This document shows positions 4,350 through 41,504 of a DNA stretch of 64,000 bases, piece after piece. Under the pieces are notes generated by a model. The model saw only the letters and a list, made by a program, of their open reading frames with translations. It was not told the DNA's origin and ran no database searches. How positions within the stretch are numbered: the first letter of the stretch is position 1; each line of letters opens with the position of its first letter. The position numbers and the translations under genes were made by a program. Origin of the DNA: an uncultured Planctomycetia bacterium (lineage in GTDB: Bacteria; Omnitrophota; Gorgyraeia; Tantalellales; Tantalellaceae); assembly GCA_964409365.1 (NCBI GenBank), contig CAYPCX010000007.1, positions 18,655-82,654 of the forward strand. The letters run 5' to 3'.

Positions 4350-4363
4350 GGTTTATAAGCGAT

Positions 4364-25771: not shown

Positions 25772-26905
25772 ATGAGGGTTTTGTATATTGCGAACAGGGC
25801 GGAGATCTTAAGCGGCGGGCAGATCAGCCTGCTCGAGTTCCTGGCGGGGATCGACAAAAGCAGGTTCGATCCGGTCGTCCTGTGCCCGGGAAAGGGGAGT
25901 CTCGCCGAGGGTTTAAGCGCTCTCGGTATCCCCGTGCGTTCTTGGGACATGCCCACCGTGAAGACGTTCAACATGAGCAGGATCCCGAAAAAGATCAGGG
26001 AACTGAGATCCATAATAAAGGAGACAGAGGCTTCGATAGTACATACCAACGGCAGCAGGGCCCAGTTCTATTCGTCGTTCGCGGTAAGGGGCACCGGTTG
26101 CGGCCTGGTGTGGAACGTGAGGGAATCGCTCCGGGATATCCCTTATTATGACCGGTTGTTGGCCGGCCCTTGCGACAGGATTATATGCGTTTCCAGGGCC
26201 GTAAGGGACAGGCGTTTCGGACGGTTCGCCTCGTCGGACCCGAAAATACAGGTGATATATAACGGGGTGGATACGCGCAAATTCGCCAAAGACCCCGAAG
26301 CGGGCCGGCGCGTGCGGGACGAATTAGGGATCGGTAAAGATAAAGTGCTTTTAGGTACTATCGGGATGATAATACCCCGCAAAGGACATGAATTTCTTTT
26401 CAGGTCGTTGAAGCAGGCCCTGAAAACAAATCCGGACCTGGTCCTCCTGGTCGCGGGGAAAACGCTGGAAGGGCCTTATACCTGCCGGTTCAAAGAGATG
26501 ATATACGAGCTGAAGCTGGAGAACAACGTGATGTTCACCGACTCGCGCGAGGATATAAAGGATATCCTGTCGGCCCTTGATGTTTTCATATTGTCATCCA
26601 AAAGCGAAGGGTTCAGCAGGGTGCTGCTGGAAGCCATGGCCTGTTCGCTGCCTATAATCGCCACGGATGTCGAAGGGAATAACGAGGCGATCGAGGACGG
26701 GGTATCCGGCCGGCTTGTGCCGTATGGCGACATAGACAGCATGGTCCTGGCGATAGAGGGTTTTATGGTGAACCGTCAGAACGCCGAAAACCTGGGGAAG
26801 AACGCCAAAAAAAGGGCGGGGGAATTTTTCAGTATCGACAGCCACGTATCCCAGGTGCAGGACCTGTACGGGGAAATAGTAAAAAGCAGAAAGCCGGGAG
26901 TTTGA
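25772..26905 (+). CDS. glycosyltransferase family 4
   Basis: SEGFSRVLLEAMACSLPIIATDVEGNNEAIEDGVSGRLV GT4 signature. Confidence 0.8.
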   Translation: MRVLYIANRAEILSGGQISLLEFLAGIDKSRFDPVVLCPGKGSLAEGLSALGIPVRSWDMPTVKTFNMSRIPKKIRELRSIIKETEASIVHTNGSRAQFYSSFAVRGTGCGLVWNVRESLRDIPYYDRLLAGPCDRIICVSRAVRDRRFGRFASSDPKIQVIYNGVDTRKFAKDPEAGRRVRDELGIGKDKVLLGTIGMIIPRKGHEFLFRSLKQALKTNPDLVLLVAGKTLEGPYTCRFKEMIYELKLENNVMFTDSREDIKDILSALDVFILSSKSEGFSRVLLEAMACSLPIIATDVEGNNEAIEDGVSGRLVPYGDIDSMVLAIEGFMVNRQNAENLGKNAKKRAGEFFSIDSHVSQVQDLYGEIVKSRKPGV

Positions 26906-29157
26906 TGAAGATCGGCATTGACGTCAGAGAGTTCAAGAAGGATACGTATACCGGGATAAGGAGTATACTCGGCAACGTTATGGGCCGTTCGGCGAAGATG
27001 GGAGGCAACGAATTCGTTTACTTCTGCGACCGGGACACCGATCTTCCGGCCCTTCCCGAAGAAGGTAAGAAGGTGGTCATCGCAGGGGATAATACCTTTT
27101 TCTGGGATCAGTCGCGCCTTCCGCTGGCGCTTTCAAGGGAAAAAGTGGACCTGTTCTTCTCGCCTTACATCAAGACGCCCCTGTGGAGGGTGTGCCCGTA
27201 CGTGAGCACTATATGCGACGTTATCCCGCTCGAGGTCCCCAAGCGCAAAGGGTTGGGCGCACTTTTGGAAAAAGCTTACTTTTACGCGTATTCTTTCCTG
27301 TGCGGCCGGCGGGCGGTAAAGGTGATAACGCTTTCGGAGAACTCCCGGGAAAGGATATCGGATACATTCGGTATAGGAAAAGAGAAGATAGAGGTCGTCT
27401 ACCCCTCGGTAGAGGCGCGCGCCGGACAGGCGGAGCCGGATGACAAGGCGAAGGAGCTTATCGACAGGTATAGTTTGGAGAGGCCTTTCTTACTGTATGT
27501 AGGTAATTTTAAACCGCATAAGAACCTGCGTAATCTTATTGCCGCTTACGATCTTTTGCCGGGAGGAGTGCAAGACCGGTACCGCCTCATGCTTGTGGGA
27601 GGTTCCGAAAAGGAGATGGAGGGGATAGAAGCGGTTATAAAAGAACACGGACTTTCGGGAAAGGTTACGCCCGTTGTCAACATCGGCCATGACGATGTCC
27701 GGGTATTTTACAGGCACGCTTCGGCCTTTGTCTTTCCTTCTCTGGCGGAGGGGTTCGGTATTCCCCCGGTAGAGGCGATGGCTTACGGGGTGCCGGTGGC
27801 GTCTTCGCGCCTGGCGCCCATGACCGAAGTGCTGGGTGAGGCGGCGCTTTTTTTTGATCCGCGTGACCCCGGGGACATCTCCGCCAAAGTGTCCAGGCTG
27901 CTCACGGAAGAGGGCTTGCGGAAAGAATACGCCGCACGGGGACGGGAGCGCGCTTTGTTGTTCGATCCCGACAGGATCTCGCGAAAGATGATGGATGTCC
28001 TGGAAAACGCCGGCCTGGAGAAGACCCTTTGCGTGAGCAGCGAATTCCCGCCGGTCAGGGGAGGTATAAGCACGTTTTTGTTCAATCTTTGGAACAGGCT
28101 GCCGAAAAGGGATATTGTCATCTTGACCGCGCGCCCGGCCGGGGAAGATATTTATCCGGATGAGGGAATGGATATCGTTAGGGAGGCGTATCCCCTGGGG
28201 AAGGGTATCTTCTCAAGGGCTGTACGGTCGATACTGCTGGTGTGGCATGTTTTGCGCCAGTGCCGGGCAAGGAATATCCGGCGCGTTCATTGCGCGCAAG
28301 TCCTTTCTGCGGGATCGGCGGGACTCCTCCTGAAATGGCTCAAAGGCACGCCGTACGTGGTTTACGCGTATTCGGCGGACATCCTCGAGTTCAGCAGAGG
28401 TTTTTTTACGGATTGGATGATGAGAAAGATATTTGCCGGCAGCGAGCGTGTCATAGCGAGCAGTATTTTTGCGAAGTCGCTTATTGTCGGGCATAAACTG
28501 GCCGGTGAAGACAAGATAAGCGTTATCGCCCCGGGGGTGGATACCGCAGAATACGATCCCGGCAAGGGGGCCGGCCGGATCAGGGAGACATACGGTATAC
28601 CGGCTGAAAGCAAAATGCTTCTTACGGTAGCGCGTCTGGCGGTCCGCAAAGGCCATGATAAGGTCATAGAAGCTTTGCCGGCCGTGGTAGAAGCTTATCC
28701 GGATGTCGTTTACGTCATAGTCGGGGAAGGCGGGACCGGGCCCGGACTTGCTGAGCGGGTAAGGGAAAAGGGGCTCGAGAAGAACGTGATATTTACCGGT
28801 GAAGTATCCGCGGAGCAGCTGGTATTCTTCTATAACGCGTGTGACATATTTATCCTTACCCCGCGCTATATAAAGGAAGAGGGTGACGTCGAGGGATTTG
28901 GTATAGTGTTCATAGAAGCGGGGGCGTGCGGCAAACCCGTAATAGCCGGCAGGAGCGGTGGAGTGTCTGAAGCGGTTGTTGACGGGGTGACCGGTATCCT
29001 CGTGGACCCGGAAAATACGGATCGGATCAGGGATGCCATGCTGACCTTGCTCGGGGACGCAAGTTTAGCTCGAAAAATGGGCACGAACGGGCTTACCAGG
29101 GCCCGGGAAGAATTCGGATGGAAGAACCGGGCGCGGGAACTGGAAAAATACATATAA
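26902..29157 (+). CDS. tandem double-GT4 glycosyltransferase (two GT-B modules fused)
   Basis: 751 aa. First module ends near FPSLAEGFGIPPVEAMAYGVPV...LAPMTEV. Second module has ILTPRYIKEEGDVEGFGIVFIEAGACGKPVIAGRSGGVSEAVVDGVTG. Confidence 0.75.
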   Translation: MMKIGIDVREFKKDTYTGIRSILGNVMGRSAKMGGNEFVYFCDRDTDLPALPEEGKKVVIAGDNTFFWDQSRLPLALSREKVDLFFSPYIKTPLWRVCPYVSTICDVIPLEVPKRKGLGALLEKAYFYAYSFLCGRRAVKVITLSENSRERISDTFGIGKEKIEVVYPSVEARAGQAEPDDKAKELIDRYSLERPFLLYVGNFKPHKNLRNLIAAYDLLPGGVQDRYRLMLVGGSEKEMEGIEAVIKEHGLSGKVTPVVNIGHDDVRVFYRHASAFVFPSLAEGFGIPPVEAMAYGVPVASSRLAPMTEVLGEAALFFDPRDPGDISAKVSRLLTEEGLRKEYAARGRERALLFDPDRISRKMMDVLENAGLEKTLCVSSEFPPVRGGISTFLFNLWNRLPKRDIVILTARPAGEDIYPDEGMDIVREAYPLGKGIFSRAVRSILLVWHVLRQCRARNIRRVHCAQVLSAGSAGLLLKWLKGTPYVVYAYSADILEFSRGFFTDWMMRKIFAGSERVIASSIFAKSLIVGHKLAGEDKISVIAPGVDTAEYDPGKGAGRIRETYGIPAESKMLLTVARLAVRKGHDKVIEALPAVVEAYPDVVYVIVGEGGTGPGLAERVREKGLEKNVIFTGEVSAEQLVFFYNACDIFILTPRYIKEEGDVEGFGIVFIEAGACGKPVIAGRSGGVSEAVVDGVTGILVDPENTDRIRDAMLTLLGDASLARKMGTNGLTRAREEFGWKNRARELEKYI

Positions 29158-29163
29158 AGGGCC

Positions 29164-30324
29164 ATGAAGCGGTATAAGATCTTACATGCGATAACGCGTT
29201 TAGATAAGGGCGGTTCCTCCGTGAACACGCTGCTCAGCGCTATCGGCCTCGCGGAAAAGGGATATGAAGTGGATCTTTTATCCGGCCGGACGATGGAACC
29301 GGATAATGATCTTATCGAACGGGCCGGGAGTTCGGGGGTGCGTTTTATTTACGAGGAACGCCTGGTCAGGGATATACATCCCGTAAAGGATATCACCGCG
29401 TTTTTCAGGGTGCTGGGCTTTCTGCGCAGGAACCGGTACGATATCGTGCACGCCCATTCGTCGAAAGCGGGGCTCATCTGCCGGATGGCCGCGAAATGCG
29501 CGGGAGTAAAAAATACAGTGTACACCCCCCATGGCCACGTGTTCTACGGGTATTTCGGCAGGGAACTTTCCCGGATGGTGGTCTTCGCCGAGGCGCTGCT
29601 GGCCCATATAACGGACAGGACGATCGGGCTTACTCCCGCCGAGTGTGACGAGTGGCTCCGTTTCGGGATAGGAAAAAAAGATATGTACGAAGCCATACCC
29701 AGCGGTATAGAGTTCGACCGGCTGGAACTCGAGGCGGAGAAAGGGAAAGACTGGAGGAAGGAGCTCGGGATCCCCCGGGAAGCCCCGTTTATCGGGTCCA
29801 CAGGCAGGTTCGCCGAGGTGAAAGGCTATAAATATTTTATAAGAGCGGCCGCGGAACAGGTAAAAAAACACCCGGATACACATTTTCTGCTGGCAGGCGA
29901 CGGGCCCCTCCGCGGTGAATTCGAAAAGATTATCAAAACCAGCGGGATCGAAAAGAATTTCCACATCATAGATTGGCAGGAGAACGCGGGGTCTGTTATA
30001 AAAGCGTTCGATGTTTTCGTGCTTTCCTCTCTTAACGAAGGGATGGGGAGGGCCCTGATAGAGGCGATGTTCCTCTGTAAGCCCGTTATAGCCACGCGTG
30101 TGGGAGGTGTGCCTTCGGTGGTATCGAAGGATACGGGGGCGCTTGTTGAGCCCGCCTCGTCTCAGGCCCTGGCGGCGGCCATGGACAGGCTGCTTAGTGA
30201 CCGGGGTAAACTGGAGGAGATGGGAAGGAAAGCCAGAGAGAGGGCGCTTGCCGGTTATTCGGCGGGCGAGATGGTGAACAGGCTTGACAAACTGTACAGG
30301 GAACTGTTAGAAAATAATAAGTAA
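29164..30324 (+). CDS. glycosyltransferase family 4
   Basis: SSLNEGMGRALIEAMFLCKPVIATRVGGVPSVV GT4 signature. Confidence 0.8.
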   Translation: MKRYKILHAITRLDKGGSSVNTLLSAIGLAEKGYEVDLLSGRTMEPDNDLIERAGSSGVRFIYEERLVRDIHPVKDITAFFRVLGFLRRNRYDIVHAHSSKAGLICRMAAKCAGVKNTVYTPHGHVFYGYFGRELSRMVVFAEALLAHITDRTIGLTPAECDEWLRFGIGKKDMYEAIPSGIEFDRLELEAEKGKDWRKELGIPREAPFIGSTGRFAEVKGYKYFIRAAAEQVKKHPDTHFLLAGDGPLRGEFEKIIKTSGIEKNFHIIDWQENAGSVIKAFDVFVLSSLNEGMGRALIEAMFLCKPVIATRVGGVPSVVSKDTGALVEPASSQALAAAMDRLLSDRGKLEEMGRKARERALAGYSAGEMVNRLDKLYRELLENNK

Positions 30325-30467
30325 CAAGGACAAAGGATAAAGGAAAAAGTAACAAGTAAGCAGGGTATAGGTGGATATTCGATGTGCTATATACGATATG
30401 CGAAATACGATATACTGGTTGCAAAACAAAAACCCTTAATTCTTAATACTTGATACTTTTTACTCGA
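30321..30467. repeat. 147-bp (21 x 7) heptamer-periodic degenerate array filling the intergenic spacer
   Basis: Read in register: gtaacaa ggacaaa ggataaa ggaaaaa gtaacaa gtaagca ... cccttaa ttcttaa tacttga tactttt tactcga. Contains the 17-mer aaggataaaggaaaaag, also present at 975-991. Confidence 0.8.
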
Positions 30468-30481
30468 AACGGATCGTTTAC

Positions 30482-31168
30482 ATGAAGATAGCTATACACC
30501 AGCCGCAGTATCTCCCATGGACGGGATATTTCGATAAGATGGACCGGGCGGACGTCTTTGTCCTTCTGGACGATGTCCAGTACAAGAAGAACGAGTGGCA
30601 GAACCGTAACCGCATCCGTAATGCCGAAGGCTGGCAATGGATCACGGTCCCCGTCCTGTACGAGTTCGGCCAGAAAATAAACGAGGTCAGGATCAATAAT
30701 AAAGAGAACTGGAGGGAGAAGCACCTTAAAAGTCTCGAGGTCAACTACTCCCAGGCCGCCCATTTTGATGAATATATCCTTTTTTTCAGGAAGCACTACG
30801 CTTGTGAATGGGAGAAGCTGGTCGATATAAACGTCCGTTTTATCGAATACCTGGCGGACACGATGGGTATAACGACGGAGATCGTGAGGAGTTCTTCGCT
30901 GGGCATAGGCACTGAAAAGACCCGGCGGCTGATCGATATATGCAAAGCGGTGGGTGCTGACGAGTACCTTTCCGGGGCGGGAGGGGGCGACTACCTCGAG
31001 GAAGAAAAGTTCGCCGGTGAAGGCATCAGGCTTGAATACCAGAAATATGAACAGAAACCCTATGAGCAGGTGTATAATGGATTTTGTCCGGACCTTTCGG
31101 CCGCGGACCTTTTATTCTGTTGCGGGAAAGACAGTATCAATATAATAAGGGAAGGGAGAAAAGAATGA
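30482..31168 (+). CDS. WbqC-like family protein
   Basis: MKIAIHQPQYLPWTGYFDKM...VLLDDVQYKKNEWQNRNRI is the hallmark WbqC-like N-terminus. Confidence 0.75.
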   Translation: MKIAIHQPQYLPWTGYFDKMDRADVFVLLDDVQYKKNEWQNRNRIRNAEGWQWITVPVLYEFGQKINEVRINNKENWREKHLKSLEVNYSQAAHFDEYILFFRKHYACEWEKLVDINVRFIEYLADTMGITTEIVRSSSLGIGTEKTRRLIDICKAVGADEYLSGAGGGDYLEEEKFAGEGIRLEYQKYEQKPYEQVYNGFCPDLSAADLLFCCGKDSINIIREGRKE

Positions 31169-31785
31169 ATATCCTCGCGATCGGCGCTCATCCTGACGAT
31201 ATAGAATACGGGTGCGGAGGCACGCTCCTGAAGATGTCTTCGCAGGAACAGGTACGCCTTTTCTATTTCATAGCGACCAAAGGGGAACTCAGCGGCGGGG
31301 CCAGCGTTAGAGAGAAAGAACAGGAAGAGGCCGCCCGCCTTCTGAAAGTGGAGAAGATATACTGGGGCGGCTTCAAGGACGCCAACTTTTCCGTCGGCAG
31401 GGACCTGATAGGCAAGCTTGAGGAAGTGATATCCGAGATACGCCCCGAGGTCATCTTCGTGAATTATCCCCAGGACACCCACCAGGACCACAGGTACCTG
31501 GCGGACTGCACCGTGGTAGCTTCCCGTTACTGCAAGAAAGTCGTTTATTACGAGGACTACACGTCCGTTAATTATGAACCCGATATCTTCGTTGACATAA
31601 GCGACGTCCTGGGGGAAAAGGTAAAGCTTCTCGAGTGCCACAAGTCGCAGATCGAAAGGGTGTACCCGACGGGGCTCGACATCGTGGAGAGCACAAGGGC
31701 CGTCGCGAGTTTCCGCGGGTTCCAGGCCAAGGTCAAATACGCCGAGGGCTTCAAGGCCCTGAGATATCTGCTGGATACAATATGA
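31165..31785 (+). CDS. PIG-L/LmbE family N-acetylglucosaminyl deacetylase
   Basis: ATG 31165 overlaps the previous stop (ATGA). ILAIGAHPDDIEYGCGGTL and later HQDH motifs. Confidence 0.8.
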   Translation: MNILAIGAHPDDIEYGCGGTLLKMSSQEQVRLFYFIATKGELSGGASVREKEQEEAARLLKVEKIYWGGFKDANFSVGRDLIGKLEEVISEIRPEVIFVNYPQDTHQDHRYLADCTVVASRYCKKVVYYEDYTSVNYEPDIFVDISDVLGEKVKLLECHKSQIERVYPTGLDIVESTRAVASFRGFQAKVKYAEGFKALRYLLDTI

Positions 31786-31800
31786 TGACAAGTTGCCTTG

Positions 31801-31877
31801 AAGAGAGAAGGGTGCTCCCGTACAGGGAGGATCCACACCGGGCGGAGGGGCCCTGGTAGGGAGCACCCTTCTCTCTT
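31801..31877. repeat. perfect 19-bp inverted repeat (aagagagaagggtgctccc / gggagcacccttctctctt) with a 39-nt loop, intergenic
   Basis: Read directly. Lies between the PIG-L stop (31785) and the DegT start (31901). No U-tract follows. Confidence 0.85.
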
Positions 31878-31900
31878 TAAGAGAACATGAAAGGCGAGGC

Positions 31901-32938
31901 ATGATCCCGCATTCAAGACCAACGCTGGGTGAGGAAGAGGCGCAGGCCGCAGCGGAGGTAATACGCTCGGGCCATATAGCCCAGGGAGAAAAGGTAAAAG
32001 AGTTCGAGGGGAAATTGGCGCGGTTCATCGGCGTGAAAGGCGCGGTATGCGTCAATTCCGGCACATCCGCCCTGCATCTGGGCCTTATTGCCATGGGGAT
32101 CGGTCCCGAAGATATCGTGCTCCTTCCTTCGTTCGTCTGCAGCGCTCCGCTGAACGCCATATACCATACGCTGGCCGAGCCCCGTCTTTGCGACATAGAA
32201 CCCGAAAGCTTCAATATCTCCCTGGAAAGCGTAGAAGATAACAGGACTGAGGAGACAAAAGCTGTAATAGTCCCCCATATGTTCGGGGCTCCGGCGGATC
32301 TGCAGAAAATAGAGGAGACAGGCATCCCCGTGATAGAAGATTGCGCTCATTCCGTCGGCGCCGCCTACGGCGACAGAAAAGTCGGCAGTGTGGGACGTTT
32401 CAGCATACTGTCTTTTTATGCCAACAAGATGCTGGCATGCGGCGAGGGAGGGGCGCTCCTTTCCGATGACGAGGAGATACTTTCCAGGGCGAGGGACCTC
32501 AGGGATTATGACGAAAAAGAAGCGTACAGGGTCCGTTACAATTACAAGATGACCGACATACAGGCGGCAGTGGGCCTGGTACAGCTTGAGAAGCTCCCCG
32601 GGATGATAGAGAAAAGGAAGGGAATAGCCTCCCGTTATAACGAGGCTTTCAAGGATCTGGACGTCGTATTGCCTAAGGCGGAGTTCGACCATGTATATTA
32701 CAGGTACGTTATCAGGACCGGTAAGGACGTACAGGACATTATCAGGGCCGGGCAGGAAAAAGGGGTGACTTTTGCCAGGCCCGTATATAGACCCTTACAC
32801 CGCTATCTTGAGCTCAGGTCAGGTTTCCGTAATGCCGACGAGGCCTATTCTTCGGCTTTATCCATTCCTATCTACCCGTCCCTCAGCGGGGAAGAGCAGG
32901 AAAAGGTCATCGATGCGGTCCACCTGCTTTCCAAATGA
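31901..32938 (+). CDS. DegT/DnrJ/EryC1/StrS family PLP-dependent sugar aminotransferase
   Basis: Full-length fold-type I aminotransferase, EFEGKLARFIG, SFYANKMLACGEGGALLSDDEE (PLP Lys region). Confidence 0.85.
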   Translation: MIPHSRPTLGEEEAQAAAEVIRSGHIAQGEKVKEFEGKLARFIGVKGAVCVNSGTSALHLGLIAMGIGPEDIVLLPSFVCSAPLNAIYHTLAEPRLCDIEPESFNISLESVEDNRTEETKAVIVPHMFGAPADLQKIEETGIPVIEDCAHSVGAAYGDRKVGSVGRFSILSFYANKMLACGEGGALLSDDEEILSRARDLRDYDEKEAYRVRYNYKMTDIQAAVGLVQLEKLPGMIEKRKGIASRYNEAFKDLDVVLPKAEFDHVYYRYVIRTGKDVQDIIRAGQEKGVTFARPVYRPLHRYLELRSGFRNADEAYSSALSIPIYPSLSGEEQEKVIDAVHLLSK

Positions 32939-32995
32939 AATCATATTTGTTATAATAATCATACAGCGGATATATGTTAAATTTCTCATATTGCC

Positions 32996-33772
32996 ATGAA
33001 ACGATCCCAGGAACTCAGACTTGACGCTAAGAACAAAAAGCTTTTCTTCGGAAGTGGGAACTGTGATGAAGTGCGCCATCTGTGCGAGGCGATATGCTGC
33101 AGGACGTATGACGTGAACATCAGCGAAGAAGAATACCGCTCCGGCAGATACAAGGCCAGACCGACGTGCAGATTGACCGGGAGGGATTGCGAAAGCAAAG
33201 ATTCGAATTGCATCAACAGAGAGTTCTGGATGTATAGGAAGGCAGATAGATCCTGCGTCTATCTAACCGGAGACAATAAATGCTCTATATATGAATGGAG
33301 ACCGGAAGCGTGCAGGGAGTTTCATTGCGTGGACGGGTGGGTAATATCCCATGCATGCCTTTCAACGAACAAGGAAAGCGTAAAGGCGCGAAAGGACATT
33401 CTTGACGAACATATACTTAAAATAATGAAAGATGACATGAAGTTCAGTCCTAACCCTCTCGTCCGGCCCAAAGCGTTGTTCTATTCAAAAGATAAAAAAG
33501 AAATACACTTTGCGATAGATATCGCGAATAAATGCGGCCTGTCGACCTCCCGCCGCGAAGCCGTCACCTCGGCGCTTGATGGGAATATGCTGTTGGAACT
33601 TTTTGGTCTTTTTGACGGGAATAGAGATCTGGGATCCGTCAGAAAGGAGTTTAACGACAGGTTCGGCCAAGTATTGTCCAGAGAGGACCTTTACCGTATT
33701 GTATGGCTTTTCAATACCGAGAAATTGATAGTTTTCACGCATTGTGCGCTGGTGTTCGGAGATAAGCAGTGA
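32996..33772 (+). CDS. fusion protein: N-terminal YkgJ-like Cys-rich zinc/iron-chelating domain plus C-terminal PqqD-like (RiPP recognition element-like) domain
   Basis: N-terminal half has 14 Cys including CEAICC and CSIYEWRPEACREFHC (compare YkgJ CxxCxxCC ... C.IYE.RP..CR.F). C-terminal 90 aa (HFAIDIANKCGLSTSRREAVTSALDGNMLLELFGLFDGNRDLGSVRKEFNDRF...EDLYRIVWLFNTEKLIV) follow the PqqD pattern. Confidence 0.6.
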   Translation: MKRSQELRLDAKNKKLFFGSGNCDEVRHLCEAICCRTYDVNISEEEYRSGRYKARPTCRLTGRDCESKDSNCINREFWMYRKADRSCVYLTGDNKCSIYEWRPEACREFHCVDGWVISHACLSTNKESVKARKDILDEHILKIMKDDMKFSPNPLVRPKALFYSKDKKEIHFAIDIANKCGLSTSRREAVTSALDGNMLLELFGLFDGNRDLGSVRKEFNDRFGQVLSREDLYRIVWLFNTEKLIVFTHCALVFGDKQ

Positions 33773-34872
33773 TCTCTAAGATGATACCTTTTCCCACTAC
33801 TGTAGACCTGGCTCTTACCGGCAGGTGCAATCTGAGATGCAAACATTGCAACGCTTCCGATGCCTGGGAGTTGGAGAGCGAACTGTCTTTTGATGAGATA
33901 ATAGGGGTTCTCGATCAGATCAGGAAGGAGAAGGTCTTCAATCTGAACCTTTTTGGAGGAGAGCCGTTCTGTTATCCTGAGATCCACGAGATCCTGGAAG
34001 CGCTCAACAGTTATCCGATAAGGATCACTATCCTCACCAACGGCACGCTTATTGACAAGAAAGCCGTTGAGTCGGTCAAAAAGATGAGGTTCCTGGCCGC
34101 TGTACAGGTGAGCGTTGATGGTTCGAACCCTTCCGTGCATGACTGGCAAAGAGGAGAGGGATCGTTCGACAAGGCAATGAACGGGGTCAGGCTGCTCATG
34201 GAAGAGGGCTTGCCGGTGAACTTAAAGGCCATTATCAACAGGCACAATATCGATGATATGGAGAATATGATCCGTATGGCAATGGGCCTGGGCCTCGGCG
34301 GCATGGATTTCGGTGATGCCGTAGAGTGCGGCAGGGCCGCGGTATACGCTAACGAACTTGTTTTCGAAGGCGAGACGCACCGGAAGATGATGGAGACCAT
34401 GTTCCGTCTGAAAAAAAAGTATCCGCGCTTTAACCTGGGCGGGACGCTGGGGCAAAAGGTAAGTATGCTCTGTGACTTTTACGCGAATGGCCGGGGTAAG
34501 GGCGCCAGGGGGACGTTTTCAACCTGCCCCGCGGGATTCAGCATGCTTTCGATACGGTCCGACGGGAAGGTGGTCCCTTGTTCCGCTTTCTGGACGCTTG
34601 TCTGCGGTGATCTTGGAGAACGGTCCCTGAAGGATATATGGGAGAATTCGCAGGTCCTGAACGAGATACGGGCCCTTGCGGATGAGGCTCTTGATAAATA
34701 TAAGAAAGAATGCGCTGATTGCGATTATCTCACCTACTGTAACGGGGGATGCCGGGCGGCCGCTTATTATTCCGCCGGGGGGGATTTAAGAGGCATCAAT
34801 ATGTCGACCTGTCTCGTATTTTCGGATCTGTACGGTTTCAGGGTGGAAAAGGATACCGCTTTATCGGCTTAG
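33769..34872 (+). CDS. radical SAM/SPASM domain peptide-maturase-like enzyme 1
   Basis: GTG 33769 with ggagat SD; overlaps the upstream stop. CNLRCKHC (CX3CX2C), LFGGEPF. C-terminal SPASM cysteines (CPAGF...CSAF...CADCDYLTYCNGGCRAAAY). Confidence 0.8.
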   Translation: MISKMIPFPTTVDLALTGRCNLRCKHCNASDAWELESELSFDEIIGVLDQIRKEKVFNLNLFGGEPFCYPEIHEILEALNSYPIRITILTNGTLIDKKAVESVKKMRFLAAVQVSVDGSNPSVHDWQRGEGSFDKAMNGVRLLMEEGLPVNLKAIINRHNIDDMENMIRMAMGLGLGGMDFGDAVECGRAAVYANELVFEGETHRKMMETMFRLKKKYPRFNLGGTLGQKVSMLCDFYANGRGKGARGTFSTCPAGFSMLSIRSDGKVVPCSAFWTLVCGDLGERSLKDIWENSQVLNEIRALADEALDKYKKECADCDYLTYCNGGCRAAAYYSAGGDLRGINMSTCLVFSDLYGFRVEKDTALSA

Positions 34873-34885
34873 GACCGGGTTCACT

Positions 34886-36016
34886 ATGAGCATGTGTAAT
34901 GAAAAAACAACAGGAAATGTCGCGCCGGAAGGCGACTTGACCAGCCTGTATATCAACCCTACCAGATACTGTAACCTTAAGTGCAGGCATTGCTGGATAT
35001 CTCCGCCGCAGAAAGAAGAACTGGACGGAAAGGGCGGAGAACTGTCGACCGGGGAGATCACAGGGATCATAAAAGAAGCGAAGGGACTGGGACTTAGGGA
35101 CGTCAAGTTCACCGGTGGAGAGCCGCTTTTACGGAAGGATATTACGGAACTTTTGAGGTTCTGCTATGAAGAAGAGGTAAAAACTTCCATAGAGACCAAC
35201 GGCACTTTGATCGACAAAGAGCTGGCTTCAGCCATGAAAAGATACGGGGTGTCTTTCATAGCGGTGAGCCTCGACAGCTACCGGGAAGAACTGAACGACC
35301 GTTTCAGGGGGCGCAAGGGAGCGTTCAAAAAGGCATTGGCGGGCATCAGGGCGCTGATCGACGAGGGCATCAGGCCGCAGGTGATTATGAGCATGTACAG
35401 GGAGAATTTCACCGACCTGCCCGAGTTCCTGAAGATGATGCAGGATCTGTGGGTCAATAATATCAAGCTGAACACTATAACGCCTCTGGGAAGGGGGGCC
35501 TCGCTTTATGATACAGGTGAGATACCCTCGGTCAGGGAGATACTCGAGTTTTTGGAAAGGCTCGGCAGTATCAGAAGGTCGTTCAAAGGCCGGTTATACC
35601 TGGACGTTCCTATAGCTTTCAAAAGTGTCGAGGAAATACACGCGGGCTGTGGGGTGTGTCACATCAAGAATATCCTCGGCATATTGTCGGACGGGAGTGT
35701 CTCTATCTGCGGGATAGGCCATCTTGAGGAGGAATTGCTTTTCGGGTCGGTCAGAGAAGATCCATCCGCATTGAAGTACATCTGGCGCGAAAATACCGTC
35801 CTTAAAAAGATCAAAGAGGAAATACCTTACAAGTTGAAAGGGGTCTGCAGCATCTGTGTTTTCAGGAACAAGTGCCTGGGGTACTGCAGGGCCGAAATAT
35901 ATCATAACACCGGGGATCTTTTCGCGCCGTACTGGTTTTGCCAGGAAGCTTATGACAAGGGGCTTTTTCCTCCAACCAGGCTTGTGCCGGAACCTTTGAG
36001 AGCGGGATATGGATAG
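34886..36016 (+). CDS. radical SAM/SPASM domain peptide-maturase-like enzyme 2
   Basis: CNLKCRHC, FTGGEPL. SPASM cysteines (CGVCHIKN...CGIG...CSICVFRNKCLGYCRAE). Confidence 0.8.
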   Translation: MSMCNEKTTGNVAPEGDLTSLYINPTRYCNLKCRHCWISPPQKEELDGKGGELSTGEITGIIKEAKGLGLRDVKFTGGEPLLRKDITELLRFCYEEEVKTSIETNGTLIDKELASAMKRYGVSFIAVSLDSYREELNDRFRGRKGAFKKALAGIRALIDEGIRPQVIMSMYRENFTDLPEFLKMMQDLWVNNIKLNTITPLGRGASLYDTGEIPSVREILEFLERLGSIRRSFKGRLYLDVPIAFKSVEEIHAGCGVCHIKNILGILSDGSVSICGIGHLEEELLFGSVREDPSALKYIWRENTVLKKIKEEIPYKLKGVCSICVFRNKCLGYCRAEIYHNTGDLFAPYWFCQEAYDKGLFPPTRLVPEPLRAGYG

Positions 36017-36815
36017 CATTTCTTATAGTGCTTTCAGGACAACCATACGTCTTAATTTCCTTAATTTTGAAGAAAGACCGGAATTATTCAAGCCGTCCGA
36101 TTCGCGGGGGGAAGGAAAAGCAGATCTGGATATTTACCTGTACAGGGGCAAGCGCAAGGAGATATCCCGCAAAGCGGAGAGAAGCCGTTTTCCGGTCAGC
36201 GCGGAGACGTTCGAAGGCAAGAAGGTCATCCGGCTTTACGACGGTAAGAGCAAAAGGGTCTTCTGTTTTTTTGAGGAAGGCCTGCTCATCGATCTGGTGA
36301 CGAACAGAGCGCTCAACCTTCCCCTGATGGACCTTCAGAACGTTCTGGACATTGTTTTCATGCATTCCGCTTCGATAGTGATGAACGGCAAGGCGTACCT
36401 TTTTATAGCTCCGAGCGGGGGCGGGAAAAGCACGATAGCCGCTCTGGCCCGGGATGAGGGTTTTTTTGTGATAGACGATGATTTCTGCGCGGTGAAAAGG
36501 TCCGGCGGGAGCTTTTTCGCGGCGCGTTTTCCGTGTTTTCTGTCGAAACGAAAAAGATTTAAAGAATGGGAAGTGGGTGGGCTTTTTCTTCTGAACAAGT
36601 CAAAAGAGAACAAGGTAAGGCCCGTTTCGGGCATCGAAGCGTTGCGCGATGCACTGCCCGAAGCGGTCCGTTATCCCCGTGAGAGAGTAGGCGCCATGCG
36701 GAACCAAGATTATCTCAGGGATGTTTTTTGTTTCCTGGACGAGATGATAGATCGTGTAGGGTTGAGCGTTCTTGATTTCAAGAAGGAAGCAGGTGTTTTC
36801 TCGTGTCTGGTCTAA
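36009..36815 (+). CDS. HPr kinase/phosphorylase C-terminal-domain-like P-loop protein (HprK-related kinase)
   Basis: HSASIVMNGKAYLFIAPSGGGKSTIAA matches the HprK C-domain P-loop region (HG..V...G.G.L..G.SG.GKS). 268 aa, no N-terminal HprK domain. Confidence 0.6.
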   Translation: MDSISYSAFRTTIRLNFLNFEERPELFKPSDSRGEGKADLDIYLYRGKRKEISRKAERSRFPVSAETFEGKKVIRLYDGKSKRVFCFFEEGLLIDLVTNRALNLPLMDLQNVLDIVFMHSASIVMNGKAYLFIAPSGGGKSTIAALARDEGFFVIDDDFCAVKRSGGSFFAARFPCFLSKRKRFKEWEVGGLFLLNKSKENKVRPVSGIEALRDALPEAVRYPRERVGAMRNQDYLRDVFCFLDEMIDRVGLSVLDFKKEAGVFSCLV

Positions 36816-38548
36816 GCTTTTTCGACGGCATTTTCGCTTCGAGGCGTCTTGTTTTACTTGAAGACCTGAAGGGTGTCCTGTCTTATGCGTCTGGCATACT
36901 TAAGAAAGACCGCTTTTCCCTGGCAATGGCCTCTTTCCTGAAGCTTTTAAGTTTCCCGCTGGGTATATCGATAGTCTACATAACGAAAGAGACCTTGGAT
37001 AAAGGTATAATGTCTAAGGACCTGAGGTCGTTCGGGTTCTTCACTGCGCTGGGCCTTTTCGTTTTTCTTCTCATGAGAGTGCTGCTGTACTTTTCGGGGA
37101 GGATCATGAACAGCGTGAAGACAAAGTTTTCCCTTGCGGTGGATCATGACCTTGCCAGGAGGCTTTTCGGTCTTGATTATCTGAAGATAAGACAACTGAG
37201 CTCCGCTGAGAACGCTTTTTACGTGAGTTACGATTGCGGTATCATCGAGAACCTGGTATTCTACGAGCTTCCCGCTCTTTTATCCTTTGTGAAAATACCC
37301 GTTTTCTTTATCCTCGCGGCGCTTTTGTCCTGGCAGTTGAGCCTATTCGTGTTTCTGGCTGTCCCGTTCGCTGTAATGCATACTATCTGGGCGTCGCGAA
37401 AGAGGCGGAGATTGAGATCGGGGTATGTGAAATCAGCGGGCAAGTCCAACGCGCTTTTTAGTGACTTCCTGATCAACGTTAAGCTTATCAAGAGCTTTTT
37501 TAAGGAAAGCTGGGCCGTTGACAGGATCATGAGACGGTTCCGGAGAAAGGCCAGGATAGACCTTTTATCTTCCCGTTTCAGGCAGGTCGAGAGATTTGTA
37601 TACGATATTTTTTCAAAATCCAGCACGGCAGCATTCTGGCTGCTGGGAGGGTATTTAATAATAACCGGCAAGTTAAGTCTTGGATCTTTCAGTGCCGTAA
37701 GCATGTATTCCGCGATGCTGTTATCAGAAGTATACAACCTGGGGTCCATTGTACGGAACCTGAACGAGGAGGGGCCTTCTATACACAGGAGTGCGCAATT
37801 TATAAGGGACATTACCGGGCCGGCTGAAGATGTTCCCGCGGTGCCGGTATCTGGCAAGTCGTTTTTTGGTGGAGATATCGAGTTCAGGGATATCGCGTTC
37901 GGATATAGTAAAGAAAAGCCTCTTTTCCAGGGACTGAACATGCTGGCGCCCGCGAGAAAGTGGACGTTGATAAAAGGTCCTTCCGGCGTCGGCAAGACAA
38001 CGCTTCTAAGTTTGATGATCAGGCTCTTCAGGTCCTGGCGCGGCGGGATCTATATCGGGGGGACGAATATCTTTGATGTGGACATTGGCCGCTTTTCCGG
38101 ATACGTTTCATGCGTGCATCAGGAATCGTATATATTCAATGACACCATCTTTAACAATGTACTTTTGGGTGATAAGAAGCCGGGCGGTCTCGTCAGGGAG
38201 GTCATGCGATTGACAAGGCTTGACGAGCTTGCCGATGACCTTTCTATCGGCTATAATACCAAGATAGGCGAACTTGGCGCAACCCTTTCAGGGGGGCAGA
38301 AGCAGCGGGTCGCGATCGCGAGAGCACTTATAAGAGAACCGAAGGTGCTTATACTGGACGAAGCGACTTCGTTTCTTGACGCCAGGATGGAAAGTGATAT
38401 TTTGAGCGACATAAAGGAACAGTTTTCCGGGCTCACGGTCCTGTATGTCACTCACAGGGAGACCGCGGACAGGTTCGCCGATGTTATCTTTGAACTTAAA
38501 GAGGAAAGGGTCGGATATGGAAGAGAAATGTCCTGTAAGAAATCCTGA
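36803..38548 (+). CDS. ABC transporter, fused permease/ATPase (exporter type, no peptidase domain)
   Basis: N-terminal 6-TM exporter domain. NBD with Walker A GPSGVGKTT, signature LSGGQKQRVAIARAL, Walker B ILDEATS. Confidence 0.85.
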   Translation: MSGLSFFDGIFASRRLVLLEDLKGVLSYASGILKKDRFSLAMASFLKLLSFPLGISIVYITKETLDKGIMSKDLRSFGFFTALGLFVFLLMRVLLYFSGRIMNSVKTKFSLAVDHDLARRLFGLDYLKIRQLSSAENAFYVSYDCGIIENLVFYELPALLSFVKIPVFFILAALLSWQLSLFVFLAVPFAVMHTIWASRKRRRLRSGYVKSAGKSNALFSDFLINVKLIKSFFKESWAVDRIMRRFRRKARIDLLSSRFRQVERFVYDIFSKSSTAAFWLLGGYLIITGKLSLGSFSAVSMYSAMLLSEVYNLGSIVRNLNEEGPSIHRSAQFIRDITGPAEDVPAVPVSGKSFFGGDIEFRDIAFGYSKEKPLFQGLNMLAPARKWTLIKGPSGVGKTTLLSLMIRLFRSWRGGIYIGGTNIFDVDIGRFSGYVSCVHQESYIFNDTIFNNVLLGDKKPGGLVREVMRLTRLDELADDLSIGYNTKIGELGATLSGGQKQRVAIARALIREPKVLILDEATSFLDARMESDILSDIKEQFSGLTVLYVTHRETADRFADVIFELKEERVGYGREMSCKKS

Positions 38549-38789
38549 TATCGTGGCGCGAAGGGAGAAGAAAGAAGCGCTTCTTTTCAATCCCGCTGAT
38601 GGCCACATGCTGTGTATTAACGGTACCGGTATGTTCGTCTGGGACCTGTGTGACGGGTCAAGTTCGGGGGACGATATTGTCGAAAAAATAGCGAATGTTT
38701 ATGAAATTACTTGCGAAAAAGCGACCGAAGATTATGATCGCTTCATAAAGGATATGGAGAAAGCCGGATTTATAGGATACAGAACCTGA
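38517..38789 (+). CDS. PqqD family protein (stand-alone RiPP recognition element-like peptide chaperone)
   Basis: ATG 38517 lies within the end of the ABC gene. NPDIVARREKKEALLFNPADGHMLCINGTGMFVWDLCDGSSSGDDIVEKIANVYEI...ATEDYDRFIKDMEKAGFIG matches the PqqD pattern closely. Confidence 0.7.
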   Translation: MEEKCPVRNPDIVARREKKEALLFNPADGHMLCINGTGMFVWDLCDGSSSGDDIVEKIANVYEITCEKATEDYDRFIKDMEKAGFIGYRT

Positions 38790-38799
38790 AGGGGGCCGT

Positions 38800-39096
38800 A
38801 TGAAGAAGAAAAAGAAGAAGTACACTCCTCCTCTTGTCCATGACCTGAGCGGTACGACTATCAGGGGGGCCCAGGCGTTCAATTGCAAAAGCGGCGCCGA
38901 AGCCGGACAGCTTTGTGATTTCGGCGCTGTGGCCGGTGGACAATGCAATACCGGAAGGGTGGCTACGCTCGGATGCTCTGCCGGCGCTGAATACGTCCCG
39001 ATGCCGAAACAATGCAGACCCGGGTTCATGGCTACCCAGCAGTGCCGTGACGGCACGTCGGCTCAGGGCACGTGTAAGACGGGATTCGGCTTTTAG
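38800..39096 (+). CDS. candidate RiPP precursor peptide: 98-aa Cys-rich peptide with a hexa-lysine N-terminus and seven tandem C-x-x-G decapeptide repeats
   Basis: gggggc RBS 6 nt upstream. MKKKKKKYTPPLVHDLSGTTIRGAQA then FNCKSGAEAGQL CDFGAVAGGQ CNTGRVATLG CSAGAEYVPMPKQ CRPGFMATQQ CRDGTSAQGT CKTGFGF. Eight Cys; every repeat starts C-x-x-G. Sits between the PqqD and peptidase genes. Confidence 0.55.
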   Translation: MKKKKKKYTPPLVHDLSGTTIRGAQAFNCKSGAEAGQLCDFGAVAGGQCNTGRVATLGCSAGAEYVPMPKQCRPGFMATQQCRDGTSAQGTCKTGFGF

Positions 39097-39119: not shown

Positions 39120-39848
39120 ATGCGCAGGATCGTGTACGGCCAGAGCATGATGCCATTTCTCAGGATGCTGGATGAATGCGTCTGCAAAAGTATAGACCCT
39201 CTTCAGATAAGTGCAGGAGATATAGTAACCTACCGCATACCCGATTGTGGTGCCACTGCCATTCACCGGGTCCTATATGTGAACAAGGAAGAAAAACATA
39301 TTGTAGCCAAGGGCGACAATATTCTTTCTGTCCCCGGTGACATAGTGCCTTTTTCGGAGGTGAAGGAAAAGGTGGTAACTGTTAAAAGGGGGGACAGGGT
39401 CTTTGATCTGGATACTTTTCCCCGCAGACGGGCGAACGCTCTTATCGCGTTCCTTTCCCGTCATAACCTGACGCCGTTTTTGGTCAAAAGGAGATTCCTT
39501 TCGCCGGTATTATTGAGTATTTCAAGAAAAAAGATCTACAAAGATGCGAGGAAGAGATATTATAAAAAGCTCTTTTTCACGTCCTATAGAAGCGGGGAGG
39601 GCCTTCGCTTTTTTGCTTTCGTGGGCAAGACAAAGAGCGCGGATGCCCTGATAAAAGAAAAGTCTGGATGCGGCGTGATAGTGAGCGCGCGTATCAGGCA
39701 CAGGGACAGGAACGAAGAGTTCGCCCGCGTATTCCTTGACAAGATCATAGAAGCGGCGGACAGGCAGTATGGCTCGGAGCATGATATCCATATAACCGAT
39801 GATACTTTCGAGGACCTTTTTTTGACTCCCACCGAATATAATGCATAA
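39120..39848 (+). CDS. Sec11/SipW-type (Ser-His dyad, ER/archaeal-type) signal peptidase I homolog with about 120-aa C-terminal extension
   Basis: YGQSMMPFL (catalytic Ser box), GDIVTYRI, AIHRVLYV (HRV His box as in SipW/Sec11 rather than bacterial KR), KGDN. The C-terminal 120 aa have no recognisable family. Confidence 0.55.
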   Translation: MRRIVYGQSMMPFLRMLDECVCKSIDPLQISAGDIVTYRIPDCGATAIHRVLYVNKEEKHIVAKGDNILSVPGDIVPFSEVKEKVVTVKRGDRVFDLDTFPRRRANALIAFLSRHNLTPFLVKRRFLSPVLLSISRKKIYKDARKRYYKKLFFTSYRSGEGLRFFAFVGKTKSADALIKEKSGCGVIVSARIRHRDRNEEFARVFLDKIIEAADRQYGSEHDIHITDDTFEDLFLTPTEYNA

Positions 39849-40983
39849 CATAGAACTTTTCCCGGCTTTGGGTTTCGATCTTTCCGCTTTAAGCGATGAA
39901 AAAAAGCTCATCGTCCTTTTTTCCAGGACGGATCTTGATGATGATATCCGGACGCAGGCGGAGTCCATACTTCACCCGGATAAAGTGGACTGGGACCGTT
40001 TCCTTGAGCTTGCCAACGTAAATCAGGTAACCTCTCTTTTTTACAGGTCCATTCAGCGGGTCGACGGCATTCCCGAAAAGGTGCTGGCCCGTTTGAGGGA
40101 ATGGTCGGCCGATATCTTCGCTTATAACATTAGGAACTTTGACGCCGCGAGGAGGCTTTCGGAACTTTTCCGCGAGGAAGAGATGGAGATCATTTTCACG
40201 AAGGGGCTTCCGTATCTCATTGATATATATGAAGATATGGGGCTCAGGGAGATGGCGGACGTCGATATTTTAGTGAAGCCGGAGGATATTCGCAAGGTGG
40301 ACATGCTGCTGGAAGGCGAAGGGTTCGCTCCTTTCGAAGAAAAGGAAGGGCTTGACGATTACAGGGCCCAGAAACTGTATTTTCGGGGTGACGGGATACA
40401 CCTGGACGTGCACAGGGGTTTTGTCGGGCGCATGCTGCACAACAGGGTCTTGGGAATAGATCCGGAAAAGGCCTGGGAGAATAAAAGAGAGCTCAGAAGG
40501 GACGATGTCCGCATTGATACACTTGACCTCACTCATACGCTTGTTTACCAGTGCCTGCACCTTTCCATGCAGCACAGTTTTTCCGGGATAAGGTGGTACG
40601 TCGACATCAATGAGTTCGTGAGAAAGTATGAGAAAGAGATCGATTGGGACAGGCTGGTCGACGCCGCGGGGGAGTACAGGATCAGGAAGCCCGTTTATTA
40701 TTCGCTTCTTTTTACGAAGGACATGTTCGATGCTCCCGTGCCCGGCCGGGTCATGAAAGAACTGAGCGGGGCAACGGGCAGGTGGGACCGGTGGTTCTTC
40801 CGCCGGATAAAGGCGAACGCGACGGGCGTGGATTATCTCGCGGAACTGGCGATGTTCGACAACTGCCTGGATGCCGCAAAGTTCATCATGCTGAGTTTCG
40901 TGTTTTATCCTCGCCGGATATTGCATTTTTTCGGGATATCAGGCAGTATATTTAAGGCATTACTATGGAAAAAGAAAAGTTGA
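39841..40983 (+). CDS. nucleotidyltransferase family protein (uncharacterised nucleotidyltransferase, NTP_transf_5-like)
   Basis: 380 aa. ADVDILVKPEDIRKVDMLLEGEGF (GS/D..D nucleotidyltransferase core context). Same length and architecture as the NTP_transf_5 proteins seen in lasso-peptide and PqqD-containing clusters. Confidence 0.55.
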   Translation: MHNIELFPALGFDLSALSDEKKLIVLFSRTDLDDDIRTQAESILHPDKVDWDRFLELANVNQVTSLFYRSIQRVDGIPEKVLARLREWSADIFAYNIRNFDAARRLSELFREEEMEIIFTKGLPYLIDIYEDMGLREMADVDILVKPEDIRKVDMLLEGEGFAPFEEKEGLDDYRAQKLYFRGDGIHLDVHRGFVGRMLHNRVLGIDPEKAWENKRELRRDDVRIDTLDLTHTLVYQCLHLSMQHSFSGIRWYVDINEFVRKYEKEIDWDRLVDAAGEYRIRKPVYYSLLFTKDMFDAPVPGRVMKELSGATGRWDRWFFRRIKANATGVDYLAELAMFDNCLDAAKFIMLSFVFYPRRILHFFGISGSIFKALLWKKKS

Positions 40984-41504
40984 GAGAGGTCTGGTGGACT
41001 ATAGCCGCGGCGTATGTCCTGGTTATCTATTCCACCCTTACGGTCGCGCCGAGTATATGGGAAAGTATCGATGTTTTCTTCGGCGGCAAGGCCATAATTG
41101 TCCTGTATTCTCTTTACTTCATAGCTGTCGTTTCTGTTCTGTATTATCTCATCCATGTAAAAAGAGAAATGTTCATTCTGACCTATATACTTTTTTTCCT
41201 TTTCATCGCTATCCTGTTCATGCTGACGAAGCTCGTAAAGAGTCCCGCGGAAAAGATACACTTGGCCGAGTACGCGATATTGGGAGTCATTTTATACAAC
41301 GCTTTAAAGGTGGATCTCGATGTTTACGGCGGAAAGCTTTATTTGTACGGTTCTCTCATCTGCGTTTTAGCGGGTTTTGGCGACGAAATAATACAGAAGT
41401 TCCTCCCCGGCAGGTTCTTCGGGTGGAAAGACGTCACCGTTAACGCCGTCAGTGGTATAATAGCCCTGCTTATGATCAGGTTCGTTGTCCTGAAAAAAAG
41501 TTAG
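40965..41504 (+). CDS. VanZ-like family membrane protein
   Basis: Four TM helices and the GFGDEIIQKFLPGRFFGWKDV motif typical of VanZ-like proteins. Overlaps the upstream gene by 19 nt. Confidence 0.6.
   Translation: MEKEKLREVWWTIAAAYVLVIYSTLTVAPSIWESIDVFFGGKAIIVLYSLYFIAVVSVLYYLIHVKREMFILTYILFFLFIAILFMLTKLVKSPAEKIHLAEYAILGVILYNALKVDLDVYGGKLYLYGSLICVLAGFGDEIIQKFLPGRFFGWKDVTVNAVSGIIALLMIRFVVLKKS

Follow-up and report, generated by a model that had tools for sequence, protein, structure and literature searches.

Within a 64,000-nucleotide stretch of contig CAYPCX010000007.1 from an uncultured bacterium placed in the Omnitrophota (the whole stretch is called the window below), the open reading frame (ORF) at positions 32996-33772 of the forward strand raises a question of function: why would a cysteine-cluster domain be joined to what looks like a peptide-recognition domain at the head of a cassette of radical S-adenosylmethionine (rSAM) enzyme genes? 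An original prediction, made from the sequence of the window, had described the gene as a fusion of a YkgJ-like domain to a PqqD-like domain. The answer that we favor, with a probability of roughly 0.55, is that the product is an accessory protein of a SynChlorMet-like rSAM cassette for a ribosomally synthesized peptide with post-translational modifications (RiPP), combining an iron-sulfur YkgJ domain with a divergent PqqD-like RiPP recognition element (RRE). The ORF is genuine, as had been predicted, with an ATG start, a length of 258 aa and a TGA stop at 33770-33772, and six full-length homologues have M1/K2 and 68 invariant columns in common. Its parts, all on the forward strand, are an N-terminal YkgJ/CxxCxxCC-type Cys-cluster domain at 32996-33355 (residues 1-120), a linker helix at 33371-33424 (residues 126-143, from DSSP of the AlphaFold model) that differs in sequence and length between the members of a 41-member family alignment, and a probable C-terminal divergent PqqD/RRE-like domain at 33431-33745 (residues 146-250, from AlphaFold and hhalign).

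On sequence grounds we firmly assign the N-terminal half to the YkgJ/PF03692 type, as had been claimed. The match of the window protein to PF03692 (CxxCxxCC) over residues 23-112 is marginal when taken alone (23.3 bits against a gathering cutoff of 23.0), and the same model is matched by 38 of 52 relatives with a best E-value of 2.9e-7. The whole protein contains 14 cysteines, at residues 23, 30, 34, 35, 58, 65, 72, 87, 96, 106, 111, 121, 180 and 250. The original prediction had placed all 14 in the first 150 residues; we count 12 there, the remaining two being C180 and C250. Twelve cysteines in 125 residues is a large excess over the background of 1.1% in ten neighbouring proteins (P ~1.6e-8). 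The 41-member alignment shows no variation at C23, C34, C35, C58, C65, C72, C87, C96, C106 and C111 and hardly any at C30. Residues 30-35 read CEAICC and residues 96-111 read CSIYEWRPEACREFHC, so both predicted motifs are present. The N-terminal motif reads C23-x6-C30-x3-C34C35, a spacing variant of the PF03692-type motif, and CSIYEWRPEACREFHC matches what we take to be the distal consensus of that family (C...C-x-I-Y-x-x-R-P-x-x-C-R-x-F). One homologue already carries the public NCBI annotation "YkgJ family cysteine cluster protein".

Structure prediction agrees with this assignment. The AlphaFold model used was built from a 41-sequence alignment (mean pLDDT 90.7, pTM 0.75); an earlier run with 6 sequences was discarded, its N-domain having a pLDDT of ~30. 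In a Foldseek search of BFVD the N-domain matched the phage protein A0A6J5KVX2 (111 aa; E 6e-4, probability 1.00, TMt 0.55, 26% identity), which is annotated as containing a zinc- or iron-chelating domain. This was the sole significant Foldseek match of the 41-sequence model in any library searched, and Foldseek found no solved structure of the PF03692 family in the PDB. A conventional ferredoxin fold, which the original prediction had named as the outcome that would speak against a YkgJ-like domain, was rejected: no Fer4 family matched at E<=1, and no ferredoxin appeared among the Foldseek matches in the PDB or BFVD. Two distant relatives, P0007 (277 aa) and P0008 (151 aa), carry one or two tandem Cys-rich N-domains and lack the C-terminal domain, and thus the N-domain is also an independent, duplicable module.

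The flagellin lysine methyltransferase FliB contains a motif of the same type, CX4CX3CC compared with CX6CX3CC in the window protein, and in FliB this motif binds an oxygen-sensitive [4Fe-4S] cluster (PMC8598068). The FliB model NF038110 matches the window protein weakly (14.8 bits against a cutoff of 85), aligning residues 30-99 to model positions 14-84 of 373. A full FliB-type methyltransferase was rejected, since only the Cys-motif region is in common. Unlike the window protein, FliB is ~400 aa long, has a large C-terminal part that is missing here, and acts on a folded protein.

We regard the C-terminal half as probably a divergent PqqD-like domain, a likeness that appears at the level of the family. 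When 35 isolated C-terminal domains were scanned singly, TIGR03859 (PqqD) was the most recurrent of 18,950 NCBIfam models (5 of 35, best E 2.3e-4); the ScmD model and a further PqqD model each matched a single member. In Pfam, PF05402 led by member count (2 of 35, best E 0.016) and various winged-helix families came after it; the TIGR03859 and PF05402 matches among the relatives are all sub-threshold. With hhalign, the C-domain gave 37.6% (P 3.4e-4) against 65 ScmD-like PqqDs, 60% (P 8.6e-5) against these together with solved RREs and one PqqD of the second cassette type described below, and 76% (P 2.3e-5) against a small diverse subset of those RREs. The C-domain alignment A7 compared with the RRE profile A9 reached 78.4% (P 1.7e-5) over 87 collinear columns, which span from an "NP" motif ahead of the first strand through the final hydrophobic strand. 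A9 was validated as an RRE profile by its retrieval of TbiB1, TfuB1, 3g2b and 5sxy.

The hhalign scores are far higher than those obtained after shuffling the alignment columns. In one control the real score was 26.7 compared with 11.4+-2.3 after shuffling (maximum 20.6, 0 of 200 shuffles reaching it), and in a second it was 32.0 compared with 10.0+-1.9 (about 12 standard deviations; maximum 16.0, 0 of 150). Column shuffling is a lenient null because it destroys secondary-structure periodicity. As a negative control, the N-domain gave 0.2-0.6% in hhalign. The AlphaFold model, derived independently of the hhalign alignments, places strands at residues 149-152, 156-164, 169-176 and 183-188, helices at 196-204, 212-223 and 229-241, and a last strand at 245-248, with pLDDT of 92-98 over most of the domain. 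This is a sheet followed by three helices, in agreement with the RRE order of elements, plus an extra hairpin of ~11-14 residues where hhalign puts an insertion. A recent duplicate of the cassette's own PqqD was considered and rejected, as hhalign to ScmD-like PqqDs alone gave only 15-38%.

C180 (nucleotides 33533-33535) lies within the PqqD-like domain, and 40 of the 41 family members keep a cysteine at this position, which may serve as a twelfth ligand of the clusters. ScmD-like PqqDs also have a cysteine in the strand region that matches C180 (…MLCIN…).

The genomic position of the gene ties it to rSAM enzymes. A promoter-like site at 32928-32956 (+), consisting of TTTCCA, a 17 nt spacer and TATAAT with an upstream TG, has 10 of 12 consensus matches; it lies ~40 nt before the ATG of the fusion gene, in a 57-nt AT-rich gap downstream of a DegT-like gene, and was recognized by consensus match only. 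At the other end, the TGA of the fusion gene (33770-33772) and the GTG start (33769) of a ScmE-like rSAM gene share bases in the sequence GTGA, with an alternative ATG 9 nt further. The fusion gene and the ScmE-like gene are translationally coupled, and the promoter-like site together with this overlap places the fusion gene at the head of a tightly packed operon.

Conserved linkage of the fusion gene to rSAM, PqqD and ScmC genes is seen across the family. The two-domain family is rare: a word-indexed search retrieved no more than eight relatives, of which six are full-length, and an exhaustive search of 1.84 billion representatives with a C-domain profile hidden Markov model (HMM) found 56 clusters at E<=1e-3, of which ~40 are 240-280 aa long with the domain at the C-terminus. 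Close relatives come from Candidatus Omnitrophota metagenome-assembled genomes (MAGs). The gene order of the window recurs at loci L001-L003, L015, L034 and L035. Several of these also have the same flanking sugar-modification and TGT/YajC genes, and because these flanks are in common some of this synteny reflects vertical inheritance. A second gene order, which itself differs among loci, is found at L004, L018, L023, L026, L028, L030 and L040, and is independent support for the rSAM linkage; at L028 it runs rSAM-ScmC fusion, fusion protein, rSAM, PqqD, S24 peptidase, rSAM/SPASM, GNAT. Among 30 distinct true family loci (L043, an N-domain alone, was left out), 20 have a rSAM gene within 3 kb. 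Where at least 3 kb is available on both flanks, a rSAM gene lies within 3 kb at 10 of 10 loci and a PqqD gene within 6 kb at 9 of 10. In cassette loci the fusion gene always adjoins a rSAM gene, and in the second cassette type it sits between two of them.

Three side observations concern these loci. Just upstream of the fusion gene at L028 is a 66-aa Cys-containing ORF (7413-7613, +; …ANKPWKKSQLIVLARGK…CKT…C…C…C…), the start of which, K-x-aromatic…L-x-x-L, loosely resembles KKYTPPLVHDL of the candidate precursor in the window; from its sequence this ORF may be a precursor. Between the rSAM-ScmC fusion and the fusion gene of the same locus, a 145-aa ORF (6744-7181, +) has a rSAM-like start, CCDNDCIHCC, ends early, and looks like a truncated or frameshifted rSAM gene. 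Finally, at L049 (45-395, +) and on the P0057 contig an ORF immediately ahead of a ScmE-like rSAM gene consists of the C-terminal domain by itself. At L049 an in-frame stop lies 42 nt upstream and the contig ends there, and at P0057 an uncalled gap of 363 nt upstream is just the size of an N-domain; these may be true stand-alone domains or artefacts of assembly or gene calling.

Several results weigh against the favored reading. The window protein, whether whole or as its excised C-terminal 118-125 residues, has no PqqD match in either Pfam or NCBIfam at thresholds as loose as E<=10 or E<=1. The original prediction had the C-terminal part following the PqqD pattern "closely" and had staked itself on a significant profile match, so that taken literally the search goes against it, and the resemblance is found at the family level only. 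C-domain profiles of 6 and then 35 sequences, searched against PDB sequences, found no RRE, with chance matches to PCNA, Spx and leiomodin. With both models, Foldseek against the PDB found nothing at E<0.1, the RRE-containing TbtB appearing only at E 1.2; of the predicted RRE fold, a three-stranded sheet with a three-helix winged-helix unit, the order of elements (strands then three helices) is matched by the model, and the Foldseek comparison with solved structures gave no support. A shallow hhalign comparison (6 against 4 sequences) gave 1.3%, a value superseded by the deeper alignments. The hhalign signal comes mostly from PqqDs of related cassettes, as two PqqDs of the second cassette type alone gave 77.6% and four solved RREs alone 3%. 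The 78% reached also falls short of the 80-90% applied by RRE-Finder, whose thresholds are >=80% for seeds and >=90% to confirm (PMC7470986). The C-domain is mildly basic (median pI 8.6) and the candidate leader Lys-rich, and the acidic stand-alone PqqD (pI 4.7) would be the better electrostatic match. At least four family members lie outside rSAM cassettes: those at L010 (929-2287) and L011 (1176-2286, 3729-4199) stand beside genes for PilZ, response-regulator and cyclic-nucleotide-binding (cNMP-binding) proteins, one at L033 has EF-P/RluA genes on one side and a gene for a solute-binding protein on the other, and one at L005 adjoins a YfhO-like membrane protein gene. Conversely, L013, from an Omnitrophica MAG, has the whole cassette with two rSAM genes and a PqqD gene, and no fusion gene within 10 kb. 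The orphan members were considered as a separate subfamily, which was rejected since they are interspersed with cassette members in a neighbor-joining tree.

An alternative is that the C-terminal domain has no relation to PqqD and represents a new fold, such as a module with which a YkgJ-type enzyme binds its substrate or a partner, in which case the precursor peptide need not be involved. The PqqD resemblance would then reflect merely a similar order of secondary-structure elements, and any alpha/beta domain with that order could beat column shuffles. The lack of a significant PqqD or RRE match for the window sequence or in Foldseek fits this explanation, as do the orphan contexts and the fact that the C-domain search of the 1.84 billion representatives reached no ordinary PqqD at E<=1e-3. 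However, PqqD is the most recurrent weak match among the NCBIfam models, with PF05402 in the same position in Pfam; the hhalign value rises with the diversity of the RRE profile, from 38% to 60% to 76-78%; and the gene is tightly co-located with PqqD-dependent machinery. We consider a new fold unlikely, although the least so of the alternatives weighed here.

The orphan loci and the head position in the operon also bear on another explanation, that the protein regulates transcription as an iron-sulfur sensor of redox state or oxygen, with the Cys domain sensing and the C-terminal winged helix binding the DNA of the cassette or of other genes at the orphan loci. The gene lies behind a promoter-like site, its C-domain is mildly basic, orphan members neighbor PilZ, response-regulator and cNMP-binding genes, and isolated C-domains give scattered weak matches to the DNA-binding winged-helix families Cdc6_C, MarR_2 and DUF4423_like. 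Furthermore, the authors of RRE-Finder note that RREs and helix-turn-helix (HTH) regulators are hard to distinguish (PMC7470986). Yet the third helix of the C-domain, which in a regulator would be the recognition helix, has a hydrophobic to acidic character (median net charge 0), and the positive charge lies in the beta-sheet. The PqqD match in hhalign is collinear from the "NP" motif and the pre-helix strands, which regulators lack, and PqqD models recur more than any single winged-HTH family. The location between two rSAM genes in the second cassette type and the translational coupling to a rSAM gene in the window likewise do not suit a regulator, which we judge the least likely of the alternatives.

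Judged from its sequence, the fusion gene is the first gene of a ten-gene cassette akin to the SynChlorMet rSAM cassette, all of it on the forward strand. The two rSAM maturases that had been predicted are both present. The first (33769-34872) is a ScmE-like rSAM/SPASM enzyme with Radical_SAM and SPASM domains, scoring 219 bits against TIGR04250 (cutoff 400), and the second (34886-36016) is a ScmF-like rSAM/SPASM enzyme scoring 319 bits against TIGR04251 (cutoff 400). The CX3CX2C motif begins at residue 20 in the ScmE-like enzyme (CNLRCKHC) and at residue 29 in the ScmF-like enzyme (CNLKCRHC), and in every rSAM enzyme of the cassettes it falls inside the first 37 residues. Because it lies so near the N-terminus, these enzymes have no N-terminal RRE of their own. 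They are followed by a ScmC/HprK-related P-loop protein (36009-36815), which matches TIGR04352 and TIGR04249 weakly and has orthologues with PF27840 ScmC, and by an ABC exporter with permease and ATPase parts (36803-38548; ABC_membrane and ABC_tran). The stand-alone PqqD-family protein (38517-38789), ScmD-like, matches PF05402 at E 2.5e-16, as anticipated, and TIGR04248 at 48 bits (cutoff 100). Its profile retrieves the solved RREs 9x8z_B, 9x90_B, TbiB1 and TfuB1, the last two being B1 proteins of lasso peptides and the others PqqD-family entries, and by this sequence evidence it is a genuine RRE. Of the two PqqD-like domains that the original prediction gave the cassette, this one is therefore confirmed, and the fused one is probable from family-level evidence and not from profile matches of its own sequence.

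The next gene (38800-39096) encodes the candidate precursor peptide of 98 aa. After a Lys-rich N-terminus (MKKKKKKYTPPL) come seven or eight C-x-x-G repeats (CKSG, CDFG, CNTG, CSAG, CRPG, CRDG, CKTG). It is found in four syntenic loci with Cys and Gly invariant, the others being L001 (15854-16147), L002 (12630-12875) and L003 (7343-7642). Downstream lies a gene for an S24/S26-type signal-peptidase-like protein (39120-39848; TIGR02228 E 2.3e-9) of 242 aa, with a peptidase-like N-terminal region of ~85 residues and a C-terminal extension of a further ~150 aa. This protein is conserved in all cassette loci, its L028 counterpart matches Peptidase_S24, and it may be the leader peptidase. The cassette continues with a NTP_transf_5 nucleotidyltransferase-family protein (39841-40983; PF14907 E 2.4e-51) and a VanZ-like membrane protein (40965-41504; NF037970 40 bits, cutoff 20), the last conserved gene, which is kept in L001-L003, L015, L034 and L035. 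The best NCBIfam models are ScmE and ScmF for the two rSAM enzymes and ScmD for the stand-alone PqqD. The ScmC model ranks second for the P-loop protein (20 bits, cutoff 125), and ScmA gives a faint match to the precursor candidate (12.8 bits, cutoff 35; E 0.1). As all five Scm scores are under their curated cutoffs, the cassette is a relative of SynChlorMet and not a member.

Some neighboring genes recur with the cassette. A response regulator gene lies downstream (41599-41955 in the window, likewise in L001-L003 and L015), and upstream is a sugar-modification block (26902-32938, +) with genes for a 751-aa protein resembling a fusion of two glycosyltransferases, a GT4-type enzyme, WbqC, PIG-L and DegT-like proteins. 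Several relatives have the same sugar-modification genes beside the cassette, and in L013 too they are close to it; a glycosylated product is one possibility, simple synteny another. In L013 the head position of the cassette is taken by a gene for a PrmA-like methyltransferase (4307-5158 of JACQXK010000071). FliB, the studied relative of the Cys motif, is also a methyltransferase, and the PrmA-like gene may be a functional replacement of the fusion gene or a coincidence.

The makeup of the cassettes bears on the proposal, contained in the original prediction, that each rSAM maturase has its own recognition element, the stand-alone PqqD serving one enzyme and the fused PqqD-like domain the other. 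Pathways with several RREs exist, for example those of thiopeptides. In the window, two PqqD-like modules stand against two rSAM/SPASM enzymes that lack an RRE, and the constant adjacency of the fusion gene to a rSAM gene in cassette loci agrees with such pairing. This is contrasted by the counts elsewhere: L018, L023, L026, L028 and L040 each have three RRE-less rSAM genes, one PqqD and one fusion protein, and L013 has two rSAM genes, one PqqD and no fusion protein. Moreover, a single precursor candidate is present, and the proposal leaves the conserved 11-Cys domain without a role. The one-to-one pairing is not supported across the family, and we think it improbable.

Under the reading that we favor, an accessory iron-sulfur protein carrying a divergent RRE, we infer the metal content, binding partner and chemistry of the fusion protein as follows. 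By analogy with the FliB motif, the N-domain with its 11 conserved cysteines most likely binds iron-sulfur clusters; together with the nearly invariant C180 there would be twelve cysteines, enough for three Cys4 sites. The C-domain, a beta-sheet followed by a three-helix winged-helix unit, would act as a highly divergent PqqD-like recognition element. PqqD docks on both PqqA and PqqE. The PqqD-like domain may similarly dock the protein on the precursor peptide, on a RRE-less rSAM/SPASM maturase, or on both. The mildly basic C-domain, set against a Lys-rich (MKKKKKK) leader, makes a protein or the core peptide a likelier docking target than the leader. Once docked, the protein would have its Cys-cluster domain within the maturation complex, and there the domain might give electrons or clusters to the rSAM enzymes or carry out a further cluster-dependent step on the peptide. 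In its most specific form, which we offer only tentatively and would not count on, the protein would add to a RiPP pathway a third iron-sulfur component, one that is not a rSAM enzyme; its own cryptic RRE would tether it to the precursor, and it would serve either as a dedicated peptide-docked electron donor for RRE-less rSAM/SPASM enzymes or as a catalyst itself.

Such an arrangement combines features of known systems. The PqqD/PqqE and MftB/MftC (mycofactocin) pairs use a PqqD-type domain in trans for rSAM/SPASM enzymes that have no RRE of their own, and the window has both kinds of protein. Their RREs, in contrast, are free-standing domains of ~90 aa or are fused to PqqC, whereas the window protein would carry a second, very divergent PqqD-like domain on a YkgJ-type Cys domain, one that fails the PqqD HMM cutoffs. 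SynChlorMet (ScmA, ScmC, ScmD, ScmE, ScmF; TIGR04248-04252) supplies the best models for the rSAM enzymes and the PqqD of the window, but no Scm model matches the fusion protein, and the window cassette adds the ABC, S24/S26 peptidase, NTP_transf_5 and VanZ genes. The rSAM RiPP maturases AlbA, CteB and SuiB hold iron-sulfur clusters and an N-terminal RRE in one polypeptide. The window protein, as proposed, would likewise join an iron-sulfur part to an RRE in one chain; unlike the rSAM barrel and SPASM domain of those maturases, its iron-sulfur part is of the PF03692 type with no rSAM motif, and its RRE-like domain is C-terminal. RRE-Finder reported fusions of RREs to a glycosyltransferase and to a glutathione S-transferase (PMC7470986), likewise cases of an RRE recruited to a new partner domain in rSAM-containing candidate RiPP clusters. 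A YkgJ/CxxCxxCC partner is not named among them, and "YkgJ" occurs zero times in that paper. RRE fusions, trans-acting PqqD proteins and, through public annotation, the family assignment of the N-domain are already known. For a fusion of a YkgJ-type domain to a PqqD-like domain we found no description in the searchable literature, which agrees with the original prediction that it is new.

The search for new RiPP pathways, where it is not tied to one class, relies mainly on RRE domains. The candidate RRE described here escapes PF05402, all NCBIfam PqqD models and Foldseek and is visible at the family level only, which suggests that such tools miss real cases. The YkgJ/CxxCxxCC family is widespread and, to our knowledge, almost uncharacterized, with FliB as its sole studied relative, and through the conserved link to a defined biosynthetic cassette its function becomes open to testing. 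Uncultured Omnitrophota-like bacteria carry the cassette, which encodes an unusual candidate precursor with Cys/Gly repeats; the product is probably a new peptide. If the protein is indeed a peptide-docked iron-sulfur component, it would give the large YkgJ/PF03692 family its first role in peptide maturation, and would mean that RREs too divergent for every current HMM are still in use.

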